DNA of 64,000 bases from a phage. Under the pieces are notes generated by a model. It saw only the letters and a program-made list of their open reading frames with translations, made no database searches and was not told the origin of the DNA. Position 1 is the first letter of the stretch. Every line of letters starts with the position of its first letter. Positions 20,613 through 23,111 of the stretch are shown piece by piece. A program made the position numbers and the translations under genes. The stretch is from the NCBI GenBank assembly GCA_012178725.1, contig GCA_012178725.1_3030.1. One strand, written 5' to 3'.

Positions 20613-21932
20613 TCACACATAAAACACATCATAACGACCACGAGTGACACCAACATAAAGAAGCTGCTGAGCTAATTCAGCATCTGCATAATGAATACAA
20701 GGCGTATAAATGAAAGCACGGTCTACAGACATACCCTGCGCTTTATGGAATGTTGATGCAGGAAGTGCTTTCACTTTACTAAACTGTGATTTAGCATCCC
20801 AAAAATCGCTCCACGGAGCTTTTCCGCCTTTGTTCCAATTTTTATAAGTTTCTGCTGTTTTACCTAAAAATAGGTTAAACTTATACAATTCTTCATCAGA
20901 TGAAATTATTTTAATCTTTTCACGATAATATTCATCATCGCCATAAGTTTCTACTGTTAAATCCCAATGACGAATTAAGTATTCCCCAGAAACACCACGA
21001 GCTTTAACAAACGTTGATGTATACTCTGCTTCTATAATACGAACTAATTGTCCGTTATTAAAAATAATTTCTGACACAGGCTTTCCATCAATTTTATATG
21101 TTTTAATTAATGGTTCCTGCATTACAATAATTTCACCGACAATAAAATCTTTATCAGTTTCAAAAATCTTTTTACGAATGATGTTATTTAACTTGTCAAC
21201 AGATTTATTCGTAAATGCCATTACGCGATTTTCAAACAAATCATCTAGTGATTTTACGATTGAAAAATAATTTACCATAAAATCGCGTAAAGCAGTATCA
21301 CCAGTAAATCCACGTACTCCATGCCCGTCAACAACTTTGTCATAAATCCACTTACCGTTGCGAACGTCAGTAGCTACATCAATAATAGGAGCATTACTGC
21401 GTTTAACTTCAGTGAGTTCACACTGATAAAAATCTTTATGTGTAAAGAATGGACTGATATAAGCAGTATTTTCTCCTGGGTCAACAGGTCTAATTTGCTT
21501 ATTATCACCTATTCCAATTATAGTACACCACGGCGGGATAGTTGAAAGCAGAATTTTAAATAGCTTTCTATCATACATTGACACTTCATCGCAGATTAAT
21601 ACCCTGCATTTAGCTAAATCTGGTACTTCCTTCTGCTCAAAAAGAACGTTTTCTTCATATGTTACTGGGTTAATTTTAAGAATACTATGAATAGTACTTG
21701 CTTCTTTCCCTGATAGTTTTGAAAGAATCTTTTTAGCTGCATGAGTAGGAGCTGCTAAAATAATACCAGTTTCACCCGTAGATATTAAAGCTTCAATGAT
21801 GAATTTGGTAAGAGTAGTCTTACCGGTGCCAGCAGGTCCATTAATAGTTACATGATGTTTCTTTTCTTTAATAGCCTTCATAACAATGTTAAAGGCATTT
21901 TTCTGGCCTTCGGTCAAATCATCAAATGTCAT
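20613..21932 (-). CDS. dda: Dda DNA helicase (SF1B)
   Basis: 439 aa; Walker A GPAGTGKT and SF1 motifs; matches remembered T4 Dda N-terminus (MTFDDLTEGQKNAFNIV...). Confidence 0.95.
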   Translation of the reverse strand: MTFDDLTEGQKNAFNIVMKAIKEKKHHVTINGPAGTGKTTLTKFIIEALISTGETGIILAAPTHAAKKILSKLSGKEASTIHSILKINPVTYEENVLFEQKEVPDLAKCRVLICDEVSMYDRKLFKILLSTIPPWCTIIGIGDNKQIRPVDPGENTAYISPFFTHKDFYQCELTEVKRSNAPIIDVATDVRNGKWIYDKVVDGHGVRGFTGDTALRDFMVNYFSIVKSLDDLFENRVMAFTNKSVDKLNNIIRKKIFETDKDFIVGEIIVMQEPLIKTYKIDGKPVSEIIFNNGQLVRIIEAEYTSTFVKARGVSGEYLIRHWDLTVETYGDDEYYREKIKIISSDEELYKFNLFLGKTAETYKNWNKGGKAPWSDFWDAKSQFSKVKALPASTFHKAQGMSVDRAFIYTPCIHYADAELAQQLLYVGVTRGRYDVFYV

Positions 21933-22240
21933 CGTAAATTCCCTGCAATTGGTATACTAACAATACGCCCAGTATCTAAAATTCGCTGATATAATCTTTG
22001 TGTGTCTACGTCAGGCTTAACATGTTTAACTTCTATTTTATTAAACCAAAACTTACGTGGAGTCTCAACTAATCTTGGAATTCCCTTACCTAAAGCTAGT
22101 CGATACTGTTCTTTAAGAGTAGTAAATACTTTATCAGCAATCTTCCATTCAAAAAATACAGCAGGACGATGTTCATCAAGCGGAACTGGCGCCGTAAATC
22201 CGTCTTTGTCTCGGTAAACTATCGCATATACATAAACCAT
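21929..22240 (-). CDS. Hypothetical protein (dda.1-like)
   Basis: 103-aa ORF; ATGA overlap with dda. Confidence 0.5.
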   Translation of the reverse strand: MVYVYAIVYRDKDGFTAPVPLDEHRPAVFFEWKIADKVFTTLKEQYRLALGKGIPRLVETPRKFWFNKIEVKHVKPDVDTQRLYQRILDTGRIVSIPIAGNLR

Positions 22241-22241
22241 A

Positions 22242-22988
22242 TTATCCTCGGATAAGTTTAAAAATTGAACAATTTAGCGGGTATCCTCTTTTCAGTTTAA
22301 GTTTATCAATAAAAGACAAGTTTTGATACCGCTCTACACCTTGAATAATTTTATCACACATATCATATTGCATTTCTGCTTCTGACAACTTTTTCACAAT
22401 TTTCCAATCCGAGCCTTTAAGAAGAACGTTCAGTTTAACAACTTCAGCGCCTTCTGCTATGCGAGAACCATCAATACGAGCTTTAAGTGCTATAATCCTT
22501 AGCTTAATGTCAGAGGTCTGTTTTGATTTAGAAAGCTGAGAAATGTGTTCAATTCGATTTTCACGTTTTTTCTGTATAGCTTTAATTTGATTATAAGTCT
22601 TTTTGATTTTAGCCCATTTCTTTTCATCTAAATTTAGTTTATGAACTTTTTTCGCAGATGAACGACCAATTCGCAAAGCAAATAAATCCCGTTTTTCAAT
22701 TAACTCCTCTAAAGTATAATCAGAACGAAATGTATTATACTTTTTCTTTACTGCAATAACATTCCCTTTAATGTATCCAACGTTATTATCAAAACGTTCT
22801 AATGATAATTTCTCTCCTTCAATACGATTATCAAAAGGTTCTCCCGAGTAAGCACAAACTTTTTGATCTAAAATGTTCTTAATGTAATTGAAGTCTAAGT
22901 TAAAATCTTTAGAACGTCTTTTTGCAGATGCCTGAGTATGCTCTAAACGACGTTTAATTTTACGAATTTGGTTATTAGACAGCTTCAT
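22242..22988 (-). CDS. srd: Basic protein at the srd position, with a degenerate HNH-like segment
   Basis: 248 aa, Lys/Arg-rich; CAYSGEPFD...LERFDNNVGYIKGNVIAVKKKYN resembles an HNH_3 core lacking the catalytic His/Cys; position between dda and modA. Confidence 0.4.
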   Translation of the reverse strand: MKLSNNQIRKIKRRLEHTQASAKRRSKDFNLDFNYIKNILDQKVCAYSGEPFDNRIEGEKLSLERFDNNVGYIKGNVIAVKKKYNTFRSDYTLEELIEKRDLFALRIGRSSAKKVHKLNLDEKKWAKIKKTYNQIKAIQKKRENRIEHISQLSKSKQTSDIKLRIIALKARIDGSRIAEGAEVVKLNVLLKGSDWKIVKKLSEAEMQYDMCDKIIQGVERYQNLSFIDKLKLKRGYPLNCSIFKLIRG

Positions 22989-23111
22989 ATTTTTCTCACA
23001 TCTTACGGACGGTTAACTACTTATACTATAACATTTTTACTTCAGCTTGTAAACAACTTTATGTAAAAATGCTTTAAAAATTTCATGGTATAATGAATCT
23101 AAGTCCTTCCA

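Follow-up and report, generated by a model that had tools for sequence, protein, structure and literature searches.

The sequence analysed here, called the window below, is a 64,000-nucleotide stretch of phage DNA (GenBank assembly GCA_012178725.1, contig GCA_012178725.1_3030.1), and the gene in question is srd, whose open reading frame (ORF) lies at positions 22242-22988. The original prediction for this ORF described a basic protein of 248 amino acids at the srd position, containing what looked like a catalytically dead HNH nuclease core of the HNH_3 kind that had been domesticated for binding.

The isoelectric point (pI) of the protein is 9.99, with 57 Lys and Arg residues against 30 Asp and Glu. 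The PHROG profile phrog_1400, 'Srd anti-sigma factor', matched residues 4-248 over profile positions 2-249 of 251 with an E-value of 3.3e-108, and the 99%-identical protein cluster that contains the Srd of the window has 441 members. About 3.5 kb around the gene is approximately 98% identical to many Tequatrovirus genomes, and the gene order dda / dda.1 / srd / modA / modB matches that of annotated Tequatrovirus genomes; the same dda/dda.1-srd-modA/modB order surrounds the gene of a distant ortholog, P0027. T2, T6 and RB14 have an identical N-terminal domain (N-domain). Judged by these matches the protein is the Srd of a Tequatrovirus. No further copies of the N-domain were found in the window. 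Srd is short for 'similarity with rpoD', and the protein is usually annotated as an 'anti-sigma factor' or 'sigma decoy'. The coordinates of the gene, the parts of its product and a promoter-like site are given in Table 1.

Table 1. Positions in the window of srd, of the parts and key codons of its product and of an upstream promoter-like site
Feature	Position	Strand	Basis or remark
srd coding sequence (248 aa + stop)	22242..22988	(-)	ORF list, phrog_1400 match, cluster membership, Tequatrovirus synteny
Very probable PacI-type beta-beta-alpha-metal (HNH / His-Me finger) domain, N-terminal, residues ~5-100	22689..22976	(-)	
Conserved core C45-R88: C-A-Y-S-G-E...S-L-E-R-F-D-N-N-V-G-Y-I-K-G-N-V-I-A-V-K-K-K-Y-N-T-F-R	22725..22856	(-)	Ortholog invariance; gap-free PacI alignment
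Codons E64-R65, end of strand 1; equivalent to PacI D92-R93 and to D-H of canonical HNH	22794..22799	(-)	E64 predicted metal ligand
Codons Y72 to N76, omega loop; Y72 equivalent to PacI Y100 (His substitute), N76 to PacI N104 (structural Asn of H-N-H)	22761..22775	(-)	
Codon N85, core helix; equivalent to PacI N113, predicted second metal ligand	22734..22736	(-)	
Basic antiparallel helical hairpin, helices 122-153 and 159-190	22419..22625	(-)	AlphaFold2 secondary structure; alignment with short relatives
Small C-terminal helical module, helices 203-222, 226-233 and 243-247	22248..22382	(-)	AlphaFold2, ortholog alignment
Promoter-like site: TTTACA, 17 nt, TATAGT, TG ahead of second hexamer	23025..23053	(-)	Consensus scan, 10/12 matches

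Conserved core, predicted fold and relationship to PacI

The string that had drawn attention to the protein, beginning CAYSGEPFD, corresponds to C45-AYSGEPFD-(NRIEGEKLS)-LERFDNNVGYIKGNVIAVKKKYN85 (window 22734-22856). Among 5.8 billion proteins searched, 27 relatives of Srd were found, with identities down to 31%, and in 26 orthologs (to 31% identity) the positions C45, A46, Y47, S48, E50, F52, E64, R65, N68, G71, Y72, G75, N76, V77, V80, K81, K83, Y84, N85 and R88 never change. In the ortholog alignments the C45-N85 segment is the best-conserved part of Srd, and on this evidence the motif is not a chance pattern. When 42 Srd-like proteins, defined by the N-domain together with a characteristic C-terminal tail, were compared, C45, E64, R65, G71, Y72, N76, N85 and R88 were each present in 42/42. 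The N-domain contains one Cys and one His, the latter not conserved.

The AlphaFold2 (AF2) model of full-length Srd has a predicted local distance difference test (pLDDT) score of 88.5, and residues 1-101 score 91.9. Within the N-domain the model places helices at 5-24 and 33-40, a strand at 61-65, an omega loop at 66-76, a second strand at 77-81 and helices at 82-88 and 93-99; the two strands and helix 82-88 all exceed a pLDDT of 90. In the model this order of strand, loop, strand and helix is the beta-beta-alpha arrangement, and R65 is found at the C-terminal end of beta-strand 1, the place of the catalytic His in HNH enzymes. The helical hairpin that follows the N-domain is strongly basic (pI 10.4 for residues 101-195), and the C-terminal module carries the conserved residues R220, G235 and P237 ('KLKRG-PL'). 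This module is kept in an Acinetobacter phage ortholog and in short Srd relatives of about 195 amino acids, P0026 and P0174 (Morganella phage MP1 'Srd anti-sigma factor', 194 aa), which lack residues ~105-200 and with them the whole hairpin, but still have the N-domain as well as the 'KLK-G-PL' module at the C-terminus. Seen from these short versions, the N-domain and the C-terminal module look like the functional core of Srd.

Three PHROG families matched Srd residues 10-98: 'endonuclease' (E 1e-18), 'HNH endonuclease' (E 1.5e-16) and 'endonuclease VII' (E 9e-8). The match lists of the fold search consisted mostly of HNH enzymes. With Srd as query, no Pfam HNH family, HNH_3 (PF13392) included, was matched at E<=10, NCBIfam gave no HNH match, and neither the single Srd sequence nor an Srd-only profile found anything meaningful among PDB sequences. 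A profile built from 48 diverse domains had PacI as its best match among PDB sequences (E 0.03), and hhalign against a profile of six PacI homologs aligned Srd 16-96 with PacI 31-125 at 96.4% probability and E 1.2e-9. The nuclease-derived HNH fold that had been proposed is accordingly supported by PHROG profiles, fold search and profile-profile comparison, and the specific resemblance to Pfam HNH_3 is not. Srd is best explained as an early protein of modular make-up, and its residues ~5-100 are very probably an HNH / His-Me finger domain of the PacI class.

His-Me fingers are defined by a catalytic His at the C-terminal end of strand 1, and the groups considered dead are those without both this His and a substitute Tyr (PMC5714182). 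PacI is an active HNH enzyme without the catalytic His, the role of which is taken by a tyrosine in the omega loop (PMC5714182, PMC4081073, PMC3384342), and the only metal it binds is coordinated by one Asp together with one Asn (PMC4081073). Srd 64-88 aligns with PacI 92-116 without gaps, pairing E64-R65 with D92-R93, D67 with D95, G71-Y72 with G99-Y100, N76 with N104, N85 with N113 and R88 with K116, so that the two proteins have the motif [DE]-R-x-[DN]-x3-G-Y-x3-N-x8-N-x2-[KR] in common at equal spacing. Between D92 and N113 PacI has no Tyr other than Y100, which does not vary among PacI homologs (6/6). Of the His-Me finger features, Srd has the omega-loop Asn (N76) and the core-helix Asn (N85) and lacks the strand-1 catalytic His (R65); by alignment, the positions of the two PacI metal ligands are occupied by E64, a Glu and not an Asp, and N85.

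The zinc knuckle CxxC...CxxC is absent in Srd. The Cys4 site of PacI (C63, C66, C109 and C112) aligns with C45, S48, K81 and Y84, and only the first of these cysteines remains; the two Cys4 zinc sites per subunit that serve as a criterion for PacI-like proteins are not found in Srd. Cas9 is an example of an active HNH enzyme without zinc cysteines. The knuckle is absent in many active His-Me fingers (PMC5714182).

Beyond the histidine-less motif and its spacing, PacI (PDB 3ldy / 3m7k) is like Srd in the helices ahead of the finger, which also align (Srd 16-40 with PacI 31-60), and in that Pfam covers neither protein. PacI differs in having an N-terminal zinc ribbon, which Srd lacks, and a full second Cys4 site, of which three cysteines are replaced in Srd, in having Asp rather than Glu at the first metal-ligand position and in having no counterpart of the 150-residue helical extension of Srd. 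PacI is moreover a bacterial enzyme, an 8-bp cutter that works as a homodimer with Mg-dependent cleavage of DNA. With the canonical HNH enzymes (Cas9 HNH, EcoKMcrA, Hpy99I and T4 endonuclease VII) the likeness lies in a core of beta-beta-alpha-metal type, the structural Asn of the omega loop and the metal-binding Asn of the helix, and the lead-in 'Q-x-G-x-C-x-Y-S-G' of Srd is similar to that of type II-C Cas9 HNH domains.

A family of histidine-less domains

Among 1.84 billion representative proteins searched with a profile of the Srd N-domain, 10,315 clusters reached E<=1e-3 and 697 reached E<=1e-10. Residues were counted at each position in 222 domains from the best 150 proteins of the 10,315 matching clusters. 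Cys at position 45 and Asn at position 76 occurred in 222/222 of these related domains, Glu or Asp at position 64 and Tyr at position 72 in 221/222 each (99.5%), and Asn at position 85 in 218/222 (98%). Position 65 was Arg in 220/222 (99%) and His in 0/222, and position 48 was Ser or Thr in 208/222 and Cys in 4/222. Since Arg65 and Ser48 are present family-wide, they are not losses specific to the Srd branch and are ancestral traits of the class.

Often one protein contains the domain two to four times, as does P0040 of the dinoflagellate Polarella glacialis (852 aa, 4 copies). Two members with tandem domains, P0168 and P0170, have kept all four PacI cysteines (CxxC...CxxC), and by these residues they bridge the Srd family to PacI. 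In the classification of Jablonska et al. 2017 the PacI type is group 20 of the His-Me fingers, with about 90 mostly giant-virus sequences (PMC5714182). The present matches give the PacI-type tyrosine variant a very large set of phage relatives.

A tblastn search found the domain in 1,326 phage records. Pfam HNH models had no match at E<=0.01 in 54 sampled relatives, and Pfam and NCBIfam together gave nothing informative for Srd or these 54. This large, mostly phage and histidine-less family thus appears to be without a curated domain model. The annotations of the relatives vary between anti-sigma factor, anti-termination protein, HNH endonuclease and hypothetical protein; 'anti-termination' is used for Klebsiella phage orthologs and 'HNH endonuclease' for a Streptomyces phage relative. 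In Acinetobacter phage Meroveus, orf025 (L002:2950-3909), annotated 'putative HNH endonuclease', lies upstream of dda and encodes a full-length Srd ortholog of 319 aa that consists of the N-domain, a long helical region and a C-terminal 'KLGLPL' tail.

State of the site and possible role in host mRNA decay

The original prediction had taken the usual catalytic His and second Cys of the HNH core to be replaced in this protein, and both equivalences are confirmed by the model and the alignment, R65 standing where the catalytic His of HNH enzymes would be and S48 aligning with the second Cys of the CxxC of PacI. The conclusion of a catalytically dead core drawn from them is not supported, because both substitutions are the rule in the whole family and PacI, an active enzyme, likewise has D-R in place of D-H. 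As PacI is active without the His and Srd keeps all the PacI catalytic equivalents, the missing His and the missing second Cys are not signs of inactivation. By the alignment, Srd appears to have lost nothing but the structural Cys4 zinc site and to have a complete PacI-type catalytic set, with Glu for Asp. Our preferred reading, to which we assign a probability of about 0.6, is that Srd has an intact tyrosine-type, PacI-like site and not a dead relic, a site that is predicted to bind metal and nucleic acid and is probably catalytic.

T4 Srd stimulates RNase E and thereby accelerates host mRNA decay, and has been suggested to associate with the catalytic N-terminal half of RNase E, according to passages citing Qi et al. 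2015 (Genetics 201:977) in three later papers (PMC13232886, PMC7430671, PMC4980113). With an intact site, the N-domain would use E64 and N85 to bind one divalent metal and, by way of this metal, would bind a phosphate of a nucleic acid, with Y72 placed as general base or nucleophile. The domain would then serve at least as a metal-dependent module for nucleic-acid binding and would probably have remained a phosphodiesterase. The hairpin (122-190) and the C-terminal module (203-247) may contact the N-terminal half of RNase E, and Srd would in this way unite RNA and RNase E like an adaptor and might also cut or nick. RapZ, an adaptor of RNase E, offers a parallel in that both proteins are suggested, for Srd in the passages just mentioned, to make contact with RNase E in its N-terminal catalytic half, and both raise cleavage. 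RapZ is however a kinase-like tetramer unrelated to Srd and has a dedicated domain for binding small RNAs.

More tentatively, and with less than an even chance, Srd may be an active Tyr-dependent beta-beta-alpha-metal nuclease or nickase whose E64/Y72/N85 site is required for the T4-induced destruction of host mRNA. If that is true, the 'RNase E activator' works through, or additionally has, a phosphodiesterase chemistry of its own on RNA or host DNA, and PacI is no oddity but the sole characterised member of a histidine-less HNH class comprising thousands of phage sequence clusters outside Pfam.

Several points weigh against an intact and probably catalytic site. A plain hidden Markov model (HMM) search links the family to PacI only weakly (E 0.03), Srd has a Glu at the position of the PacI Asp, and all zinc ligands but one are gone from its N-domain. 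The effect of Srd on mRNA decay reportedly requires RNase E, and such a dependence is more easily reconciled with an activator or adaptor than with an RNase acting on its own. In the literature searched no biochemical activity was given for Srd or for family members besides PacI, and we know of no member other than PacI with a known activity. The clustering of E64, Y72 and N85 in space is predicted from the alignment and the secondary structure, and the strict conservation could be due to binding of metal and phosphate without cleavage.

The most serious alternative to the intact site is that the HNH-derived domain is catalytically inert and does no more than offer RNase E, RNA or the transcription apparatus a surface to bind to, in the manner of SMAD MH1 and ENPP. 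It would account for the absence of the canonical catalytic His and of three of the four zinc cysteines, and it suits a gene that is a syntenic, vertically inherited host-takeover gene of T4-type phages and not a sporadic mobile endonuclease. In the known phenotype, as described in the passages that cite the functional work, Srd likewise stimulates RNase E by associating with the N-terminal half of the enzyme, and there are precedents for dead His-Me fingers that serve in binding (PMC5714182): in SMAD MH1 and the nuclease-like domain of ENPP1-3 the His is lost and the fold is reused for binding DNA or a ligand. These known dead groups nevertheless lack both the His and the Tyr (PMC5714182), whereas Srd has the Tyr and both metal-ligand positions, strictly conserved. 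The residues that seem to be missing are, moreover, absent in the whole family and in active PacI, and the catalytic-equivalent positions show no drift in the 42 Srd-like proteins, though overall identity falls to about 31%. The sequence argument for a fold domesticated for binding fails for the same reason, as Y72, E64, N85 and N76 are apparently all kept, 42/42 and at PacI spacing. A binding-only role for the domain is accordingly rated unlikely, while it keeps a real share of the probability.

Two other explanations would remove the nuclease connection altogether. Many phage records annotate the protein as 'Srd anti-sigma factor' or as a 'postulated decoy of host sigma70 or sigmaS', and the gene lies among modifiers of transcription (modA, modB, mrh, srh), from which it could be supposed that Srd is an anti-sigma factor or decoy of sigma-70 or sigma-S with a motif that mimics a sigma region. 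This is very improbable, for no Pfam model of sigma-70 region 2, 3 or 4 matches Srd at E<=10, the motif maps on the HNH fold by three independent methods, and the literature citing functional work on Srd describes, in the parts seen, the RNase E effect only. Still more improbable is that the HNH likeness arose by chance or is generic and treble-clef-like, the domain being an unrelated small alpha/beta fold. The lack of Pfam, NCBIfam and direct PDB matches and the modest E-value of the family profile against PacI speak for such a coincidence, but the hhalign probability, a gap-free motif alignment over 25 residues with seven key positions in common, the three PHROG endonuclease matches and the retention of a full CxxC...CxxC site in some family members all speak against it.

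Both Srd and PacI were already known, and some database entries already hint at 'HNH'; what is new is the placement of Srd in the PacI class. No fold or mechanism for Srd and no connection between Srd and PacI were found in the literature searched. Proteins known to bind RNase E at its catalytic half and to accelerate it are very few, and Srd is one of them; its PacI-type placement points to the substitutions E64A, Y72F and N85A as a means of deciding whether a nuclease-type site is needed for RNase E stimulation or not. It also corrects the easy mistake of equating an HNH domain that has no His with a dead one.

Neighbours of srd and of its relatives

Three relatives of Srd adjoin a gene for an RNA ligase (Cronobacter phage leB and the metagenomic P0085) or for a Ro-like RNA-binding protein (Streptomyces phage Patelgo). 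The relatives were considered with their neighbours at loci L003:2788-4361, L005:5001-7234, L004:555-2788 and L008-L087, and a census of neighbours covered 72 viral contigs carrying one subfamily. The 145 neighbours in this census fell into 92 clusters, among them DNA polymerase III alpha, an intein-containing ribonucleotide reductase, a deoxynucleoside monophosphate kinase, a PD-(D/E)XK nuclease, an RNase T-type exonuclease, RecA and the baseplate protein gp25. A specific RNA-linked function of the family was rejected, since an RNA ligase was adjacent in only 6/72 contigs and the neighbours were very diverse. The scatter between unrelated conserved phage genes looks like that of free-standing homing endonuclease genes and fits a family that is enzymatically active. 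Srd itself is unlike this scattered subfamily, its position being fixed across the T4-type phages.

Several of the neighbouring RNA ligase genes (e.g. L028:4224-5309) open with a segment of about 60 residues that contains a CxxC and an 'HH' motif, as in 'KCVFCKS...VVHHVIERRLF'. This segment resembles a canonical HNH finger, putatively joined to the ligase; the only domain given by Pfam is RNA_ligase.

The promoter-like site in Table 1 is a sigma-70-like match 37 nt upstream of the srd start codon on the same strand, and it is a match to the consensus only, such matches showing no excess over shuffled sequence across the region. At the other end of the gene, the srd stop codon (22242-22244) and the dda.1 start codon (22238-22240) are separated by 1 nt, and dda.1 (21929-22240) overlaps the start of dda, which ends at 21932, by 4 nt. 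This tight packing suggests translational coupling at dda/dda.1/srd.
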